From: Myxococcota bacterium
GTDB taxonomy: Bacteria > Myxococcota_A > UBA796 > CAJQPC01
Assembly (NCBI GenBank): GCA_036229005.1
Contig: JAZAMN010000011.1
Span: 1 to 64,000 of the forward strand
Reading direction: 5' to 3'
DNA length: 64,000 bases
Positions within the stretch are counted from its first letter, which is position 1, and each line of letters starts with the position of its first letter. Positions 27,999-39,619 of the stretch are shown here, one piece after another. The notes beneath the pieces are model-generated. The model ran no database searches, was not told the origin of the DNA, and was given only the letters and a program-made list of their open reading frames with translations. The position numbers were made by a program, and so were the translations under genes.

Positions 27999-29069
27999 GT
28001 GAAGGTTGACGGCACGCCATACCGCACGGTGTGGATGGACGGCTCGGTTGTACGCATGATCAACCAGCACCTGATCCCCCACCGCTTCGAGATCATGGAC
28101 CTGGGCGACTACCACCAGACGGCCAAGGCCATCACGGTGATGAACGTCCGCGGGGCCGGCGCCATCGGCGCCACGGCAGGCTTCGCCATGGCCCAGGCTG
28201 CCCTCTCCGCCGGAGACAGCAGCTTCCACGCGGACATGGCCCAGGCCGCCAAGGTGGTGCAGGCGACCCGTCCGACCGCCCAGAACCTCTTCTACGCCGT
28301 CCGCCGCGTGCTCAAGGCCATCGAGGCCCAGGGCAGCGACATCGCCAAGGCCCGCCAGGCCGCCGTGGCAGAAGCCCAGGACATCGCCGACGACGACGCC
28401 GCCTGCTGCGAGGCCATCGGCCAGCACGGCGCTCCCCTGGTGCCCGAGAACGCCCGGGTCAGCACCCACTGCAACGCCGGCTGGCTGGCCTTCGTGGACT
28501 GGGGCAGCGCCCTCTCCCCCGTCTACGTCGCCCACCGCCAGGGCAAGAAGCCCTTTGTGTTCGTGGACGAGACCCGGCCCCGCAGCCAGGGCGCCCGCCT
28601 GACCGCCTGGGAGCTCGCCAAGGAGGGCGTCCCCCACGCCGTCATCTGCGACAACGCCACCGGCCACTACCTGCGCACCGGCCAGATCGACATGGTCATC
28701 GTGGGCAGCGACCGCATCGCCGCCAACGGCGACGTCGCCAACAAGATAGGCACCTACACCAGCGCCCTGGCCGCCAAGGCCGCCGGCGTGCCCTTCTACG
28801 TGGCCGCCCCGACCACCACCATCGACCCCGACTGCCCCAGCGGGGACGACATCCCCATCGAAGAGCGCGACCAGGACGAGGTCCGCTACACCTGGGGCTG
28901 GTCCGACGACGGCATCTTCACCCGCGTCCGCACCGTCCCCGAGGAGTCCAGCGCCCGCAACCCCGCCTTTGACGTGACCCCCGCCGAGCTCGTGGCCGGC
29001 ATCATCACCGAGAAGGGCGTGGTGAGCGCGAGCGTTGAGGGGATCGCGTCGGTGGCGCGGAAGGGCTGA
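27999..29069 (+). CDS. mtnA: S-methyl-5-thioribose-1-phosphate isomerase
   Basis: MNVRGAGAIG, TRPTAQNL, THCNAGWLA, DETRPRSQGARLTAWEL, GSDRIAANGDVANKIGTY, NPAFDVTP. Confidence 0.95.
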   Translation: MKVDGTPYRTVWMDGSVVRMINQHLIPHRFEIMDLGDYHQTAKAITVMNVRGAGAIGATAGFAMAQAALSAGDSSFHADMAQAAKVVQATRPTAQNLFYAVRRVLKAIEAQGSDIAKARQAAVAEAQDIADDDAACCEAIGQHGAPLVPENARVSTHCNAGWLAFVDWGSALSPVYVAHRQGKKPFVFVDETRPRSQGARLTAWELAKEGVPHAVICDNATGHYLRTGQIDMVIVGSDRIAANGDVANKIGTYTSALAAKAAGVPFYVAAPTTTIDPDCPSGDDIPIEERDQDEVRYTWGWSDDGIFTRVRTVPEESSARNPAFDVTPAELVAGIITEKGVVSASVEGIASVARKG

Positions 29070-29083
29070 GGCCGCAGATTGGC

Positions 29084-29136
29084 TGTTGCTCCTCCAGGGA
29101 CATCCCGTATAGGGTGTGTCTACTGGAGGGTGACGC
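29084..29136 (+). promoter_or_regulatory. Putative promoter/operator and RBS block, copy 1
   Basis: TTGCTC-N18-TAGGGT with GGGA-CA-TCCC inverted repeat in the spacer, then GTCTACTGGAGG RBS. Near-identical block at 32016-32069. Confidence 0.65.
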
Positions 29137-30687
29137 ATGTTCATGGTCCTGCTGGCGGCGTGTACGCAGCCCCCCTCGCCTTCGGCTGGCCCCGACACCG
29201 GCGACGCTTCTACGCCCCCGGCGACACCCGAGCTCTGCGACAACGGCCTGGACGACGACCGTGACGGGCTGACCGACTGCAGCGACCCGGACTGCATGCC
29301 CTGCCAGGAGGACTGTGAGGACGGGGTGGACAACGACCTGGACGGGCTGGCCGACTGCCTGGACCCGGACTGCGATGTCTACACCGTCTGCATCGAGTTC
29401 GACTGCGAGGACGGGCTGGACAACGACGGCGATGGCCTCGCCGACTGCCTGGATCCCAACTGCAGCATCCGGTGCGACGAGGACTGCGGGGATGGGGTCG
29501 ACAACGACGCGGATGGGGATGTCGACTGCACCGACTCCGAGTGCATGGAGAAGGCCCCTGACTGTGTAGAGGAGTGCGACGACGGGCTCGACAACGACGG
29601 CGACGGTCTGATCGACTGCGACGACGACCACTGTCGCGGCTTGGAGGCGCCCTGCATCGAGGTGTGTGGCGACGGGCTGGACAACGACCGGGATGGGGAC
29701 ACGGACTGCGCGGATGCGGAGTGTTTTCGCGACGAAGTGTGCGCCGAGACCTGCGATGACGGTCTGGACAACAACGGGAACGGCTTGGTGGACTGCGAAG
29801 ACCCCGTGTACTGCCAGTGGGACTCCTCCTGCATCGAGGACTGCGCCGACGGCCTGGACAACGACCTGGATGGGAGGCTGGACTGCCGCGACCCCGACTG
29901 TTTCCGCGCCCCCGACTGCCTGGAGGTCTGCGACGACGGCATCGACAACGACCTGGACGGCGACGTGGACTGCGACGACCGGGACTGCGCCAGCCTCCAG
30001 GCCCCCTGCGTCGAGGTCTGCGACGACGGCGCCGACAATGACCTGGACGGCCTCGTGGACTGCGAGGACGGGAGCTGCTCCGCCGAGTGTGCGGAGAGCG
30101 ACTGTACCGACGGGGTGGACAACAACGGGAATGGCCGGGTCGACTGCGACGACGAGGAGTGCTGGGGAATCGAGGGATGCGATGACGGCTTCGCCATCCG
30201 CGTCCTGAGCGGTCATGTCACCCAGGACTTCGTGACGAGCTCCATCGCCAGTCACACCTGGGTGGTCCAGTCTCCGCAAGGCGTCGCCCACATCGGCGAG
30301 TCCAGCGAGCACATAAGCTGCACCTGGTCTGCTGCGGGCTTCACGCTGCGCCACCAGACCTGGACCAACCGCAGCTACTACGGAGCGACCTCCTGGACCG
30401 GGAGACAGTACTGGCTGATCGACAGCCTGCAGACCTCAGGAGCGTGCTCCGGCCGCCTGAGCAGTGGGATGCTGAGCTTCGAGTCCACTGCGTCCGACCG
30501 TGGGGCGCTGGGCCACCACATGGCCGGCGACTATGGCTCGATGAACCTGGACAGCACGCGGCTGCTGGGAGGCGTGTACTTCTTCCCCAGGTCGACCTAC
30601 TACGGCGCGACGCACACCTGGCGTGCCTGGAGCGCAACCTTCCAGATCGACCCCGCCATGACCGAGCCCCTGGAGCTGAGCGAATGA
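29137..30687 (+). CDS. Cys/Asp-repeat stalk lipoprotein with variable head domain, paralog 1 (11 repeats)
   Basis: MFMVLLAAC, repeats CxDGxDNDxDGxxDCxDxDC, head with SCTWSA and QTSGACSG. Confidence 0.9.
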
Positions 30688-31967
30688 CACCGCTGCTCCT
30701 GGCGTTGGCCTGCAACTCTCAGCCCCAGCCCCAGCCCCGAGACTCCGCGGACACCTCTGTCCCCCAGCCCGATCCCGAGCTCTGCGACAACGGCCTGGAC
30801 GACGACGGCGACGGCCTGATCGACTGTCTGGACCCCGACTGCACCGAGCTCTGCCCCGAGGACTGCCACGACGGATGGGACAACGACGCCGACAGCCTGG
30901 AGGACTGCGACGACCCCGAGTGCGCGCTCCAGTGCGTCGAGGACTGCGACGACGCATTCGACAACGACAACGACCTGCTGATCGACTGCTGGGACCCGGA
31001 CTGCGAAGGCGACCCCACCTGCACCGAAGACTGCAGCGACGGCATCGACAACGACGAAGACGGTCGCATCGACTGCAGGGACTCCGACTGCTACGCCTCG
31101 GAGGACTGCGTCGAGGACTGCAGCGACGGCGTCGACAACGACCTGGACGGCTACACCGACTGCGAGGACTCCGAGTGCGCTGGGCTGGTTGAGCACTGCG
31201 TCGAGGACTGCACCGACGGCATCGACAACGACGGGGACTGGGCCATCGACTGCCAGGACGCGGAGTGCGCTGGGCTGGTCGAGCCCTGCATCGAGGACTG
31301 CAGCGACGGCATCGACAACGACCTGGACGGCCGCGTGGACTGCGAAGACGGCGACTGCTCCTTCTCCTGCACGGAGCTGGACTGCCACGACGGGCTGGAC
31401 GAAGACGGCGACAGCCGAACCGACTGCGACGACGCCGACTGCTGGGGGGTTGGGACGTGCTCAGGGAAGGCCAGCCTGCGGGTCCTGGGTGGCGTGTCCA
31501 AGCACCTCTCGCTCTACTCCTTCTCCTCCAGCTACTCCATGTCCGGAGAGGCCCACAATGCGACCAAGGTCTACGGCACCGCGTTCCTGCAGGACGCCGA
31601 TCGCTCCCTGGCCTGTGACTGGTCTGCCGATCGGCTCTTCGCCTTTGAGACGATCGGTTCACGGCGCGAGTTCAGCTACGAGGTCGTGAGCAGCAGCACC
31701 TTCATCCACACCTACTTCGTCCCTGTCTACCGGCAGGGCCTCCGCTTCTTCGGGTTCACCAGCACGGGCGCGTGCGGCGGCTTCCTCACCAGTGCAGCCG
31801 TCTCGTTCGCTTCTTCGGCCGAGGAGACTCCCCTCCCCGAACGGGTCGACTTCCCGAGTGCGAGCGTACTGTCCCTGGACAGCACACCCTTCATCGTGCA
31901 GGCGGGTCGATACAGCACCATCGTCGGCGCACGGACCGAACCCTGGGTCTTCTGGGAAGAGGAGTGA
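30684..31967 (+). CDS. Cys/Asp-repeat stalk lipoprotein, paralog 2 (8 repeats)
   Basis: ATGA overlap at 30684, [10 protein letters not shown], head with ACDWSA and TSTGACGG, ends [10 protein letters not shown]. Confidence 0.9.
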
Positions 31968-32015
31968 TCCGGGGTGGCCCGGAGAGGCTGAAACGTGCGG
32001 TGAACCCGGATTTCC

Positions 32016-32069
32016 TGTTGCCGACCAAGGGACATCCCGTATAGGGTACTGTCTACTGGGAGGTGACAG
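32016..32069 (+). promoter_or_regulatory. Putative promoter/operator and RBS block, copy 2
   Basis: TTGCCG-N18-TAGGGT. AGGGACATCCCGTATAGGGT is identical to copy 1. GTCTACTGGGAGG RBS. Confidence 0.65.
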
Positions 32070-33611
32070 ATGTTCCTGTTCGCTCTGCTGCTCGCCTGCG
32101 ACAAGGACGTCGAGGTCACCGAGACCGACACCGACACCGGCACCCTGTCCAGCGAGATCTGCGACGACGGCATCGACAACGACCGCGACAGCCTGGTGGA
32201 CTGCATGGACCCCGACTGTCCGGCCTGCGCCGAGGACTGCGCAGACGGCGTGGACAACGACGGGGATGGGGCCATCGACTGCCTGGACAGCGACTGCGCT
32301 GCCGAGGCCTCCTGCCAAGAGGACTGCACGGACGGGGCCGACAACGACGCCGATGGCTTCACGGACTGCGAAGACGACGACTGCGCCAGCGACGCCGCCT
32401 GTCGCGAGTCGGTCTGCGACGACGCTGTAGACAACGACAGTGACGGCTTCACAGACTGCGAAGACGACGACTGCACGGCAGACAGCCACTGCGATGAGTC
32501 CCTGGCCTGTGAGGACGGCGCGGACAACGATCTGGACGGCCTCACCGACTGCGAAGACGACGACTGCGCTGGCGATGCCGCCTGCCCCGAGGTCGACTGC
32601 GGCGACGGGCTGGACAACGATCTGGACGGCCTGAGCGACTGCTACGACGACGACTGCAGCGCGGATCCAAGCTGCGATGAGTCCACCCAATGCGCAGACG
32701 GGGTGGACAACGACGGCGACGGCGACATCGACTGCGAAGACCACGACTGCAGCCGCGATTCCGCCTGCAAAGAGTCCGACTGCCGCGACGGCGCGGACAA
32801 CGACTCCGATGGCCTGAGCGACTGCTACGACGACGACTGCGCCCGCGACTGGGACTGCCTGGAGAACAAGAACTGCGACGACGGCGCCGACAACGACCTG
32901 GACGGCGACACCGACTGCGACGACAGCGACTGCGCCACAACAAGCGAGTACTGCGTGGAGTTGGACTGCTTTGACGGCCTGGACAGCGACAGCGACGGGC
33001 TGGTCGACTGCGAAGACGGAGACTGCATGTCCGCCTGCACAGAGAGCGCCTGCAGCGACGGCGTGGACAACGACTACGACGGCTACACCGACTGCATGGA
33101 CGACGACTGCATCGGGGACAGCGCCTGCAACGATCGGATGTGGGCCACCATCACCGGCGGCAACGCCAGCTTCTCCGAGCGCATGGACTGGGGCGGGGTC
33201 TCCGGCGCCATCGTCGAGCAGAGCGCCTGGGTTCAGAGCCCCAGCGGGAGCGCCCAGCTCCAGATCAGCTCCGCCACCTACGCCTGCAACTGGACCGCGA
33301 GCAGCTTCCAGGTCAACGACACCTGGAACGATGGCCTCTCCTCTTGGCGCACCTTCGAGATCACCGGCCTGAGCTCCACCGGCGCCTGCGGCGGCCTGCT
33401 GACCTCTGCCTTCTTCGACAAGACCTACTGGTCCCCCACCGCGAGCAGCGGCATGGACCTGTACATCTGCGGCGCCAACCTGCTCCTGGGCTCCCACACC
33501 CTGATCCGGGGCGGCTCGATCAGCGCGAGCACCTCCAGCAGCGGCACCGGCTGGAGCCGACAGACCACCTACGCCCCCGTCCAAAGCGGCGACCTCTGGC
33601 CCCAACTCTGA
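32070..33611 (+). CDS. Cys/Asp-repeat stalk lipoprotein, paralog 3 (11 repeats)
   Basis: [10 protein letters not shown], head with ACNWTA and SSTGACGG. Confidence 0.9.
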
Positions 33612-33626
33612 GCCCTCGGAATCGCA

Positions 33627-35306
<1,680 letters not shown>

Positions 35307-35315
35307 GGGAGGGAC

Positions 35316-36494
35316 ATGATCTGGCTCCTGCTGGCCTGCACCCCCACCCCCCAGGACAGCGGCCCTGCGCCCAACTCCGTCGAGCTGTTTTGCCGGGACG
35401 ACGAGGACAACGACGGCGACGGCCTGACCGACTGCGAGGACAGCGACTGCGCCGAGAACCCGGCCTGCTACGAGGCCTACTGCGGCGACGTGCGGGACAA
35501 CGACCTGGACGGGCTGACCGACTGCTACGACCCGGACTGCTGGGGGCGAGACAACTGCACCGACGTGTGCGATGGCTGTCCTGAGATCTGCGATGACAAC
35601 AAAGACAACGACCTGGACGGACCGCGAGACTGCGACGACCCCGACTGCGAGCTGGATTCGGCTTGCGTGGAGATCTGCGACAACGGCCAGGACGACGACG
35701 GCGACAACAAGGTCGACTGCCTGGATCCTGACTGCGCGGGCCTGCAGGCGCCCTGCATCGAAGTCTGCGATGACGGCGTCGACAATGACCTGGACGGCGC
35801 CACGGACTGCCGGGACTGGGACTGCATCGACGAGCAAGCGTCGTGCATCGAGATCTGCGACGACGGCGTCGACAACGACGCGGACGGCCTGGTCGACTGC
35901 GAGGACGGTGCCTGCGCCGATACATGTATCGAGCACTCCTGCGACAACGGCATCGACGACGACAACAACGGCCGGGCAGACTGCGACGACGAGGACTGTT
36001 GGGGGCTGGGCGCCTGCCCCAACCGCGCGGGCCTCCGGGTGCTGGGGGGCCGCTACCGGCACCACACCTACCAGGATGCAACGTTCTACATGCACGCCAC
36101 CATCTCGCAATGGTGGGTGGACTCCGCGAGCGGGGTGCTCGTGCGCGGCAGCGATGGGGTCCAGAGCTCCTGCGCTTGGGAGGCCAACTCAGTGGAGGCC
36201 TGGGAGGTGTTTGGCGTCAGCTACGGCCACATCTGGACCCGACAACACCTGGCGCTTCCTGGCTTCAGCAGCACCGGCGCCTGCTCGAGCTGGGGCGCGC
36301 CCTCCCAGTTCACCTTCTCGGATGTGCTCAGTGGAGACAGCCTCCCCGAGCGCTTTGACAGCTCCCCCAACGGCTTCACCCTCGACGGCCAGTGGCTGGC
36401 GCGCGGGCTACCCTTCCAGGACAGCTTGGGCAGGATCGAGGTGAGGGTGCTCCCCAGCTACACCGAGCCCTGGGTGTTCTGGGAGGAAGAGTGA
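35316..36494 (+). CDS. Cys/Asp-repeat stalk lipoprotein, paralog 5 (7 repeats)
   Basis: GGGAGG RBS, MIWLLLAC, head with SCAWEA and SSTGACSS, ends [10 protein letters not shown] as in paralog 2. Confidence 0.9.
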   Translation: MIWLLLACTPTPQDSGPAPNSVELFCRDDEDNDGDGLTDCEDSDCAENPACYEAYCGDVRDNDLDGLTDCYDPDCWGRDNCTDVCDGCPEICDDNKDNDLDGPRDCDDPDCELDSACVEICDNGQDDDGDNKVDCLDPDCAGLQAPCIEVCDDGVDNDLDGATDCRDWDCIDEQASCIEICDDGVDNDADGLVDCEDGACADTCIEHSCDNGIDDDNNGRADCDDEDCWGLGACPNRAGLRVLGGRYRHHTYQDATFYMHATISQWWVDSASGVLVRGSDGVQSSCAWEANSVEAWEVFGVSYGHIWTRQHLALPGFSSTGACSSWGAPSQFTFSDVLSGDSLPERFDSSPNGFTLDGQWLARGLPFQDSLGRIEVRVLPSYTEPWVFWEEE

Positions 36495-37390
36495 AGATCC
36501 TGCTGCTGCTGGCCTGCGCCCCCACCCCTGCGACACCCCAGCCCACTCCAGACTCCGGAGAGATCTGCGATCCCTGCGAGGACACCGGCAGCACAACCCC
36601 TGCGGTCGAGCACTGCAGCGACGGCGTGGACAATGATGACGATGACCTCGTCGACTGCGCGGATCCCGACTGCAGTGAGCTGTGCATCGAAGACTGCGGA
36701 GATGGGGTCGACAACGACCAGGACGGGCAGATCGACTGCGCTGACACATCTTGCCGACAGGACCCAGTGTGTCAGGAGGACTGCAGCGATGGGGTGGACA
36801 ACGACCTGGATGGGCTCACCGACTGCGAAGATGGCGACTGCCAACTCGACTGCATCGAGACCGCCTGCGAGGACGGGCTGGACAACGACGCCAACGGGCT
36901 GGCCGACTGCCAGGACCCCGACTGCTGGGGGATCGTGGACTGTCCCGACGCCAAGGCGGTGTTCTGGACGGAGACCCGCGACTCGTGGAACAGCAGCAGC
37001 ATGTTCCGGGTGGGCTCCCACTCCAGCACCATGAACGCCACCTGGCACTACGCGGCCTCCTGGTGGGACGACAGCGCAGCCGGCGTCGGGTGGGTGCTTC
37101 GGGACGGCGTTCTTCAGAGCTGCACCTGGACGGCGGACCGCTTCTTCGCGCAGCACACCACCAGCCAGGACCACAGCGTGGTGGAGATGCGACAGCTCAT
37201 ACACTTTGACGCCCTGCAGAGCAGCGGGGCCTGTGGCGGTGCGATCAGCGGGAGCGCCCTGGACTTTGACGTGGACCCTCGCGACGGCGCGCGCTTGGGC
37301 CTGGGCTCCAGCCTGCAGATCGATGGATACGCCTTCGGGGCGCCGCAGTGGGAGCAGCGGCAGCCCTGGGTGATCGGAGTCGAGCCATGA
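36491..37390 (+). CDS. Cys/Asp-repeat stalk lipoprotein, paralog 6 (4 repeats)
   Basis: GTGA overlap at 36491, MKILLLLAC, head with SCTWTA, QSSGACGG and RQPWV. Confidence 0.88.
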   Translation: MKILLLLACAPTPATPQPTPDSGEICDPCEDTGSTTPAVEHCSDGVDNDDDDLVDCADPDCSELCIEDCGDGVDNDQDGQIDCADTSCRQDPVCQEDCSDGVDNDLDGLTDCEDGDCQLDCIETACEDGLDNDANGLADCQDPDCWGIVDCPDAKAVFWTETRDSWNSSSMFRVGSHSSTMNATWHYAASWWDDSAAGVGWVLRDGVLQSCTWTADRFFAQHTTSQDHSVVEMRQLIHFDALQSSGACGGAISGSALDFDVDPRDGARLGLGSSLQIDGYAFGAPQWEQRQPWVIGVEP

Positions 37391-38760
37391 TTTGGCTTCT
37401 GCTTGCGTGCACAGCGGACTCTGAGCCCTACCGCTTCCAGCCTGTGGAGTTCTGCATCGATGGCCTGGACAACGACGGTGATGGCCTCACGGACTGCGAC
37501 GACGACGACTGTATTCCGGACCGGCAGTGCCCGGAGATCTGCGACGACGGGCTGGACAATGACGACGACGGTGAGGTCGACTGCGACGACCTGAACTGTT
37601 CGACCGTCGCCCCCTGCGTGGAGATCTGCGCAGACGGTGTCGACAACAACCACGACGGCAAGACGGACTGCGAGGACGTCCAGTGTTGGGAGCACAAGAG
37701 CTGCCAGGAGGACTGCAGCGATGGCATGGACAACGACCTGGACGGGCGCACCGACTGCGAGGACCCGGAGTGCGACTGGGTCCCTCCCTGCCTGGAGGAC
37801 TGCAGCGACGGCGTGGACAATGACGGCAACGGCCTGATCGACTGCCTGGACTCGGACTGTGAGTCCTCGGGCTGGTGCATCGAGGACTGCGCAGACGGCG
37901 TCGACAACAACCAGGACGGCCGGGTGGACTGCGACGACCCGGACTGCAGCGACACCTGTCTGGAGGACTGTAGCGACGGTGTCGACAACGACGCCAACGG
38001 GCTGGTGGACTGCAAGGACACACGCGACTGCTACACCCACGAGGCGTGCGCGGAGGACTGCACCGACGGGATCGACAACAACTACGACCGGCTAGTGGAC
38101 TGCGACGACTACGCCTGCTGGCGCGACGACGCCTGTCGGGAGCTCTGTGACGACGGCATCGACAACGACGAGAACGGCCTGGTCGACTGCGAAGACGGCG
38201 CCTGCCAGTTGGAGTGCCTGGAGAGCGACTGCACGGACGGAGTCGACAATGACGCCAACGGGCTCGCGGACTGCCAGGATCCGGACTGCTGGGGCGTGGT
38301 GGACTGTCCTGACGCCCGCGCGGTCTTCTGGACCGGGGACGACATGTCGTGGTGGAGCAGCCAAGGTCGCTACGGGTGGTCTGGCTCCACCAGCGGCCAG
38401 TCCGGCAAGGTGGTCTGGCAGACCTCCACGTGGGTCCACAACAGCCCTGACGGTCTGGGGTGGGTGCTGGAGGACGGCGTCCCCCTGAGCTGCGGCTGGA
38501 GGGCGACTCTGATGACCGCCCAATACCGGAACCACAACAACGATGGAAAGCGGGAGCAGCGCGAGATGCTCGAGTTCACCGGCCTCAGCAGCACCGGCGC
38601 CTGCCTCGGGGCCTTCTCGGGCAGCGCGCTGGACTTTGACCTGGACCACCTCGAAAGCCAACGGCTGGGGAGCGGCTACTATCTGCAGCTCGACGGCTAC
38701 GAGTTCGGCCAGCTCTACTGGAGCGATCGCCAGCCCTGGGTGATGGAGCTGGAGGACTGA
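37387..38760 (+). CDS. Cys/Asp-repeat stalk lipoprotein, paralog 7 (10 repeats)
   Basis: ATGA overlap at 37387, MIWLLLAC, head with SCGWRA, SSTGACLG and RQPWV. Confidence 0.9.
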   Translation: MIWLLLACTADSEPYRFQPVEFCIDGLDNDGDGLTDCDDDDCIPDRQCPEICDDGLDNDDDGEVDCDDLNCSTVAPCVEICADGVDNNHDGKTDCEDVQCWEHKSCQEDCSDGMDNDLDGRTDCEDPECDWVPPCLEDCSDGVDNDGNGLIDCLDSDCESSGWCIEDCADGVDNNQDGRVDCDDPDCSDTCLEDCSDGVDNDANGLVDCKDTRDCYTHEACAEDCTDGIDNNYDRLVDCDDYACWRDDACRELCDDGIDNDENGLVDCEDGACQLECLESDCTDGVDNDANGLADCQDPDCWGVVDCPDARAVFWTGDDMSWWSSQGRYGWSGSTSGQSGKVVWQTSTWVHNSPDGLGWVLEDGVPLSCGWRATLMTAQYRNHNNDGKREQREMLEFTGLSSTGACLGAFSGSALDFDLDHLESQRLGSGYYLQLDGYEFGQLYWSDRQPWVMELED

Positions 38761-38881: not shown

Positions 38882-39619
38882 ATGGACCCGAGCACCCTGT
38901 ACTTTGTGCACATCCCCAAGACGGCGGGGCGCTACTTGGTGGTGAAGGCGCTCAACCACGAGCTGCTCGAGTACAAGCACCTGCCGAAGGGCCGCCTGTA
39001 TCGCGGGAATCCGACGGGCCGGGTGTACTACGGCGGCCACAATGTGTGCCACAGCGCGCCCGCGAGTCCGATCAAGTACTTCACGGCCGACTGCACGCAG
39101 GACGCGGAGTTCCACAGCTCGACGAGCTTCGCCATCGTGCGGAATCCCTTCGACCTGCTGGTGAGCATGTTCAAGGCGGGCTGGCCCTACCAGCGGGGGA
39201 TCAGCGACCACCGCTTCCCGGACTTCGAGGCCTTCATCCACGCATATTGCGACCCGGAGTACCCCTGGGTGGTCCCGCTGCAGCAGCGCTTTCTGTTCTT
39301 TCAGGTGCTGGATGATGGGGGTCGCTGCGCGGTGGACCGGCTGCTGCGCTTCGAGGACCTGGACACCGAACTGGCCGAGCTGTGCGCACCCATCGGGGTG
39401 AAGCCGGCCGTGGACTCGCCCTTCCGGCCCTCGCGGCATGGGGACGACCGCGACCACCGGCGCTGGTACAACAACGCGACCCACGACCTGGTGCGGGCGG
39501 CCTGCGCCCAGGAGCTGGAGCAGCTCGGCTACGACTTTGACGGGATCTGCGCGCCGCTGGACCGTGAGCGGCTCCACGTCCCGGACTTCCGGGCGGTCGA
39601 GGCGGAGCTGGCGGCCTGA
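38882..39619 (+). CDS. Sulfotransferase (Sulfotransfer_2-like, carbohydrate sulfotransferase family)
   Basis: YFVHIPKTAG 5'-PAPS-binding motif, FAIVRNPFDLLVS 3'-phosphate motif, LRFEDL, ELEQLGYDF. Confidence 0.85.
   Translation: MDPSTLYFVHIPKTAGRYLVVKALNHELLEYKHLPKGRLYRGNPTGRVYYGGHNVCHSAPASPIKYFTADCTQDAEFHSSTSFAIVRNPFDLLVSMFKAGWPYQRGISDHRFPDFEAFIHAYCDPEYPWVVPLQQRFLFFQVLDDGGRCAVDRLLRFEDLDTELAELCAPIGVKPAVDSPFRPSRHGDDRDHRRWYNNATHDLVRAACAQELEQLGYDFDGICAPLDRERLHVPDFRAVEAELAA

Follow-up and report, generated by a model that had tools for sequence, protein, structure and literature searches.

A tandem array of stalked, predicted lipoproteins with variable heads in a marine Myxococcota genome

Two described proteins come closest to the genes studied here. 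CglD of Myxococcus xanthus is a lipoprotein exposed on the cell surface, with DxDxDG repeats and an adhesin domain at its end (10.1101/2023.10.19.562135). TraA (TIGR04566) is a cell-surface protein in which, according to the accessible sections of PMC13184517, a variable domain precedes a Cys-rich repeat stalk, the anchor is of the MYXO-CTERM type, TraB is encoded in the same operon and variation is carried by alleles. Here we describe an array of seven plus-strand open reading frames (ORFs) filling positions 29137-38760 of the window, by which we mean the whole 64,000-nt stretch analysed (positions 1-64000 of contig JAZAMN010000011.1, assembly GCA_036229005.1, from a Myxococcota genome of 6.4 Mb that is 94% complete and is labelled G000 below). 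The reading that we favour, by analogy and with a probability of about 0.55, is that the heads of these proteins are likely binding domains (adhesins) and that the array is a birth-and-death repertoire of them.

Like CglD, the array proteins start with a lipid anchor, which in their case is predicted, continue with consecutive disulfide-bearing DxDxDG repeats of the Ca2+ type and end in a domain for which an adhesin role is predicted in the array; CglD has COMP/TSP-like repeats, a VWA domain and a role in gliding, whereas the array heads, of about 170 amino acids (aa), form a variable multigene family, and no VWA Pfam profile matched the seven proteins or 91 heads of the family. TraA is similar in its repeat stalk, variable domain and surface location, but the array proteins are anchored at the N-terminus, have no partner and vary by paralogue content. 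Their C-termini carry no MYXO-CTERM and are without a hydrophobic helix and basic tail, and TIGR04566 matched nothing in the array, its only match in the genome being below cut-off and elsewhere. The original prediction, made from the letters of the window, had taken TraA as its comparison; CglD, an N-anchored lipoprotein with a DxDxDG stalk and a terminal adhesin domain, is the closer analogue. Judged from sequence, the array is likened to a CglD-type stalked lipoprotein adhesin set in a variable tandem array, and is a member of neither the CglD nor the TraA group. The stalk itself is nothing unusual, and tandem lipoprotein arrays that vary are already known as a type of locus, which makes this one less surprising.

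Stalks, heads and anchors

Adjacent genes overlap by four bases at three junctions and are separated by 9-102 nt at the other three (Table 1). Repeat numbers counted by pattern agree with those obtained with the NCBIfam profile NF033662 (acidic double-disulfide repeat, acid_disulf_rpt), 63 in total. The predicted layout of seven co-oriented, closely spaced or overlapping genes with these numbers is confirmed. All seven proteins match this profile at 108-288 bits (cut-off 41), with every copy detected, and a Pfam scan of the seven gave no match; NF033662 covers the repeat only and is silent on head, array and function.

Table 1. Coordinates of the array genes and associated features in the window
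Feature	Position	Strand	Protein (aa)	Repeats	Head (length)	Remarks
Gene 1	29137..30687	+	516	11	30163-30684 (174 aa)	9-aa lipoprotein-type signal
Gene 2	30684..31967	+	427	8	31443-31964 (174 aa)	start overlaps gene 1 stop (ATGA)
Gene 3	32070..33611	+	513	11	33111-33608 (166 aa)	head structure predicted
Gene 4	33627..35306	+	559	12	34794-35303 (170 aa)	
Gene 5	35316..36494	+	392	7	36000-36491 (164 aa)	head structure predicted with last two repeats
Gene 6	36491..37390	+	299	4	36926-37387 (154 aa)	
Gene 7	37387..38760	+	457	10	38290-38757 (156 aa)	
RQPWV-coding tract	37354..37374	+				common to 3' ends of gene 6 and an eighth gene; site at which run X2 has about 1.2 kb more
Upstream element of gene 1	29077..29136	+				TTG-N16-TATAGG, then GTCTACTGG, then Shine-Dalgarno site
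Second copy of upstream element	32009..32069	+				precedes gene 3
Left flank, IF-2B-family gene	27999..29069	+				synteny anchor, outside the system
Right flank, sulfotransferase-like gene	38882..39619	+				weak PF03567 match, below cut-off; synteny anchor, outside the system

A PDB sequence search with the gene 4 stalk returned teneurins only, the best match being the isolated C-rich domain 7PLP (E 3.5e-4). In PMC9058538, this domain of teneurin-4 is reported to bind three Ca2+, the ligands being eight acidic residues and an Asn, and the disulfides of the teneurin C-rich domain are given as 1-3, 2-5 and 4-6. Of the 63 repeat units in the array, all have a fourth Cys 3-7 residues past the motif and a Glu at -2 to -4; D, N or E occupies the D845-equivalent position in 61 of 61 canonical units, and D or E the D856-equivalent position in 52 of 61, the remaining Ca2+-ligand positions being partly fixed by the search pattern (the profile count is likewise 63). 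The bacterial unit thus retains the teneurin ligand positions and the first two disulfides, and because of this the stalk, which spans 104-361 aa at a net charge of -37 to -121, is likely, by analogy with 7PLP, a spacer stiffened by Ca2+ and disulfides. The original prediction had read the stalk as a series of Ca2+-binding DxDxDG loops; that plan stands as likely, but the repeat was already catalogued and has a solved homologue. Teneurins carry a single copy with six Cys, whereas the array stalks are built from 4-12 copies in tandem, have four Cys per copy and belong to bacterial lipoproteins. As a separate observation, the stalk units (29236-38289) are near-exact counterparts of the teneurin C-rich core. 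The available text of PMC3278476 proposes a diatom or algal origin for this domain, and that of PMC13018210 reports teneurin-like proteins in Myxococcota; given the latter and the bacterial tandem copies, a bacterial source is worth considering.

The heads, taken as everything after the last repeat, had been put at roughly 150-170 aa and measure 154-174 aa. Homologous to one another at 20-49% identity, they all keep a CxWxA...GAC pair of cysteines. A search with the seven proteins and 91 heads matched no named family or fold, in line with the earlier failure to recognise one. Predicted structures are all-beta, with a mean predicted local distance difference test score of 75.5 for the gene 3 head and 86.6 for the gene 5 head with its last two repeats. 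Conserved columns hold only C, G, W, L, P and V, plus one Arg in 60 of 91 heads, and the spans of two hairpins vary from 25 to 63 and from 27 to 62 aa, with tips rich in S, G, T, R, Y and W. The family is not confined to the array, a correction to the earlier picture: four further members occur in G000 and about 90 were sampled in the order, four family members having an FG-GAP-like region (by pattern) behind the head. In the literature searched we found neither the head family, nor its predicted structure, nor this array.

Each array protein begins with 7-9 mostly hydrophobic residues followed by the lipobox Cys (residues 8-10); all seven signals end L/A-L/A-A-C, and only that of gene 6 contains a Lys, a basic n-region being otherwise absent. 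Lipoprotein signals usually measure about 15-25 aa and have a basic n-region, so that the array signals (8-10 aa) fall outside the usual substrates of signal peptidase II in both respects. In genes 1, 3, 4 and 5 the signal cannot be longer, because an in-frame stop lies directly upstream. When all starts in the genome (starts, not genes) with M and an uncharged hydrophobic run ending in L, V, I, F, A, W or M and then A or G were counted, the next residue was Cys in 113 of 274 at position 8, 104 of 341 at position 9 and 117 of 276 at position 10, compared to only 6 of 64 at position 13. The genome also has matches to Lgt (4), LspA (2) and LolA (1). Lipidation of the array proteins is accordingly a likely reading of their sequences, since this short signal type is common across the genome, and the predicted plan of lipobox anchor, stalk and variable head holds; export to the outer face is presumed. 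A literature search returned no description of such short lipoprotein signals. Several hundred ORF starts in G000 show uncharged lipoprotein-type signals of 8-11 aa ending L-A-C or L-G-C, and 160 of 329 such starts are without an in-frame alternative upstream.

Turnover of the array

The locus occurs in sequencing runs of seawater or marine metagenomes, four of which (X1-X4) span the region completely at 95-100% identity. A 20.8-kb contig of X2 (depth 144) matches the window at 35496-37374 and then from 37354 onward, with 1,187 letters in between that resemble repeats and a stalk-head junction. A 402-aa protein, P0007, fits this gap: by arithmetic, its head start lies 369 nt from the shared RQPWV-coding tract, as on the contig, and its longest contig has the same length as that of alleles of genes 1, 5 and 6. 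That gene 6 allele ends RQPWVMPLEER, whereas P0007 and gene 6 of the window both end RQPWVIGVEP. Gene 6 of the window is likely a deletion chimera, given that its C-terminal residues are those of the eighth gene, which is missing there; in the simplest history, the eighth gene would have been lost by a crossover within the shared tract, with gene 6 keeping the lost gene's tail. X1 (probably the source run) and X4 (depth 3.9) bridge the seven-gene junction; X3 fits it as well, but with a contig of 39 nt, too short for it to be counted. The eight- and seven-gene forms in near-identical strains, with a junction tract and a chimeric tail, make one step of turnover directly visible.

Two 1-nt insertions also set X2 apart, one within the gene 4 head and the other in a C run that closely follows the gene 5 signal; P0027 is a recorded allele of gene 5 that is truncated at the N-terminus. 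Separately, this C run (35341-35346, one base longer in X2) could reflect slippage-type phase variation or simple decay. Alleles of one gene differ by about 1-4% between strains. The protein alleles, which are not independent, show 22 differences in about 1,150 head positions and 13 in about 1,400 stalk positions; among the subset of X2 differences classified by codon, 11 were non-synonymous and 13 synonymous in heads, compared to 1 and 8 in stalks. All seven genes are intact at deep divergence (20-49% head identity), with a G+C content at third codon positions (GC3) of 0.85-0.95, from which it follows that each has been kept for a long time.

In other species the same site holds one intact gene, two internally deleted genes and one stub (G001, where copies are joined by 90-nt junction repeats that are 80-94% identical), two decayed remnants at a contig end (G002), or no array at all, the two flanking genes lying 240 nt apart (G003); the array is also absent from more distant loci with the same upstream genes. 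Copy number and frameshifts thus differ between strains and copies decay in congeners, and the array is not invariant. Two of the three outcomes that would have refuted the original prediction, an invariant array and heads belonging to a named family, therefore did not occur. In a quick tree the seven heads fall in one weakly supported clade of 23 rows (SH-like approximate likelihood ratio 86), split into two lineages (3/4 and 1/2/5/6/7); elsewhere the tree contains local duplications of separate origin, among them a triple in G047 and a pair in G001. Genes 2 and 5 share a C-terminal end motif of 10 residues, the 5' ends of genes 3 and 4 are 82% identical across 290 nt, and the heads of genes 6 and 7 are 49% identical, so that the sub-family pairs noted earlier are real; several rounds of duplication are supported. 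Elsewhere in G002, at a locus where G000 has none, lies a gene 3/4-type member with a broken head (L024:4241-5780, contig C51).

Possible roles of the heads

We read the heads as likely binding domains because of the stalk grammar of the genome and the CglD plan. G000 has 104 ORFs with NF033662 or a related MopE-type repeat, of which 63 have a lipobox by pattern. Of 20 sampled end domains, six scored above Pfam cut-offs (C-type lectin, FG-GAP twice, beta-helix, OmpA and TSP3), three matched weakly (PKD, SGL and fibrinogen) and 11 had no Pfam match and are unnamed. The seven genes would be paralogues of one unnamed family of predicted lipoproteins, in which a predicted lipid anchor is followed by the NF033662 spacer, likely stiffened by Ca2+ and disulfides, and by a head, all-beta by prediction, that would bind its target through the variable tips of its hairpins. 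Specificity would differ from head to head, with surfaces or glycans of particles or prey as the most likely targets; individual heads would be dispensable, and the array would gain, lose and break members between strains, probably by recombination at its repeated gene junctions. Both Ca2+ binding and the binding function are properties that we infer from sequence. As a tentative extension, the head may be a new beta fold used as an antibody-like scaffold, with a disulfide-pinned core and three length-variable hairpin tips rich in Ser, Gly, Tyr and Trp, held on Ca2+-stiffened stalks of different length behind short signals of 8-10 residues and reshuffled at junction repeats, giving an uncultured lineage of marine predators order-specific, tunable receptors for prey or surfaces.

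Several observations weigh against binding. A 95%-complete congener is without the array and without any detected head, which indicates that the head family is dispensable and also fits neutral turnover. Heads are freer to change than stalks, yet the substitutions give no signal of positive selection and no excess of replacements. The higher column entropy of the hairpin tips (3.5-3.65 bits) compared to the core (2.5-2.7) is partly alignment noise, and no structural homologue pointing to a binding role was found. Finally, lipoproteins may face the periplasm, and the residue at +2 in genes 3 and 4 is Asp, which in E. coli signals retention in the inner membrane.

The immediate neighbours of family genes (127) hardly cluster: nearly all are singletons, and no cluster is larger than that of a sulfatase, found at 6 loci. 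The 81 that were scanned are mostly housekeeping genes, with one OmpA-domain neighbour, and no TraB-like, toxin or secretion-system gene recurs among these 81 of 127 or flanks the array. We consider it unlikely that the locus reflects mostly neutral turnover of a structural or redundant envelope lipoprotein (e.g., a Ca2+-binding coat), with junction repeats destabilising it and tips drifting unconstrained. The fast decay of copies in G001 and G002, the absence in G003, the frameshifts in a close strain, non-synonymous head changes that do not exceed synonymous ones and the strongly negative stalks (-37 to -121) could be expected under this assumption; however, seven intact genes that keep their core, disulfide and GC3 of 0.85-0.95 at 20-49% head identity argue for long purifying selection on each, and related stalks in G000 bear recognised binding domains. 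Somewhat less likely are TraA-like homotypic kin-recognition receptors, or proteins that protect against phages or the toxins of competitors as decoys or by conferring immunity. Tandem arrays of Tli-type immunity lipoproteins exist, gene content that is polymorphic between strains and variable tips fit conflict-driven loci, and tandem pairs and triples arose repeatedly in other genomes, but the neighbours scanned and the lack of MYXO-CTERM point the other way, and alleles of one array gene are nearly alike (about 1-4% different), whereas the TraA variable domain is highly polymorphic in the accessible sections of PMC13184517.

Less likely again is a carrier or scavenger role, in which heads of the TULIP or AOC-barrel type, tethered by the stalk in the periplasm or on the surface, would take up lipids or small hydrophobic ligands; the TULIP superfamily and the DUF3237/DUF3224 beta-barrels scored at background, with no sequence similarity, and the predicted structures have no long helix. 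A further reading, with the long hairpins inserted into membranes and the heads assembled as oligomers into beta-barrel pores or outer-membrane barrels, is very improbable, as the distal hairpins are without alternating hydrophobicity (0.55 vs. 0.57 shuffled, and 0.53 vs. 0.51), hairpin length varies more than two-fold, and the C-termini are mostly Pro, in contrast to the aromatic residue of barrel signals. If the heads are binding domains, the locus bears on prey and particle recognition by uncultured marine Myxococcota. The head is an unnamed domain of only about 170 aa that is modelled with confidence; its natural variants, about 90 in number, lend themselves to expression and screening, and its fold, possibly an unrecorded one, has variable, loop-like tips that could be useful in a binder scaffold.

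Upstream elements, flanks and other stalked proteins

An identical 18-nt element lies ahead of genes 1 and 3 (2 matches vs. 0.02 expected); the surrounding upstream element reads TTG-N16/17-TAnAG plus leader and has related copies in G001 and G002. It is likely a sigma-70-type promoter with a short leader, although a strict promoter scan gave no match there, and its duplicate was likely copied along with its gene. The second copy suggests two transcription units, genes 1-2 and genes 3-7. Genes 3, 4 and 5 (32070-36494) lie in the same frame, with a single TGA stop and 3-5 codons between one gene and the next; read-through seems unlikely because each has its own signal.

The 104 repeat-bearing ORFs of G000 make up a very large set of Cys/Asp-repeat stalk proteins, in which 75 end regions of at least 130 aa form 18 clusters, one of them with 56 members (FG-GAP and lectin among samples). 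Three lipoproteins with the repeat of the array have different unnamed Cys-containing heads (G000:C16:64004-64924, C51:14048-15145 and C71:210394-211188). The end region of a MopE-repeat lipoprotein on the minus strand (G000:C67:1303-5013) gives a weak match to the profile of the TraA N-terminus (E 1.5e-5, 26 bits, cut-off 80), and a 2,695-codon ORF (G000:C19:44664-52751) has repeats of both types and, at its C-terminus, a membrane helix followed by a basic tail, which we take to be of the MYXO-CTERM type. As for the flanks, the IF-2B-family gene is presumably of the methylthioribose-phosphate isomerase mtnA type, and the sulfotransferase-like gene, which has the orientation of the array in the window, is inverted in two congeners (L022:10964-11707 and L026:15466-16329).

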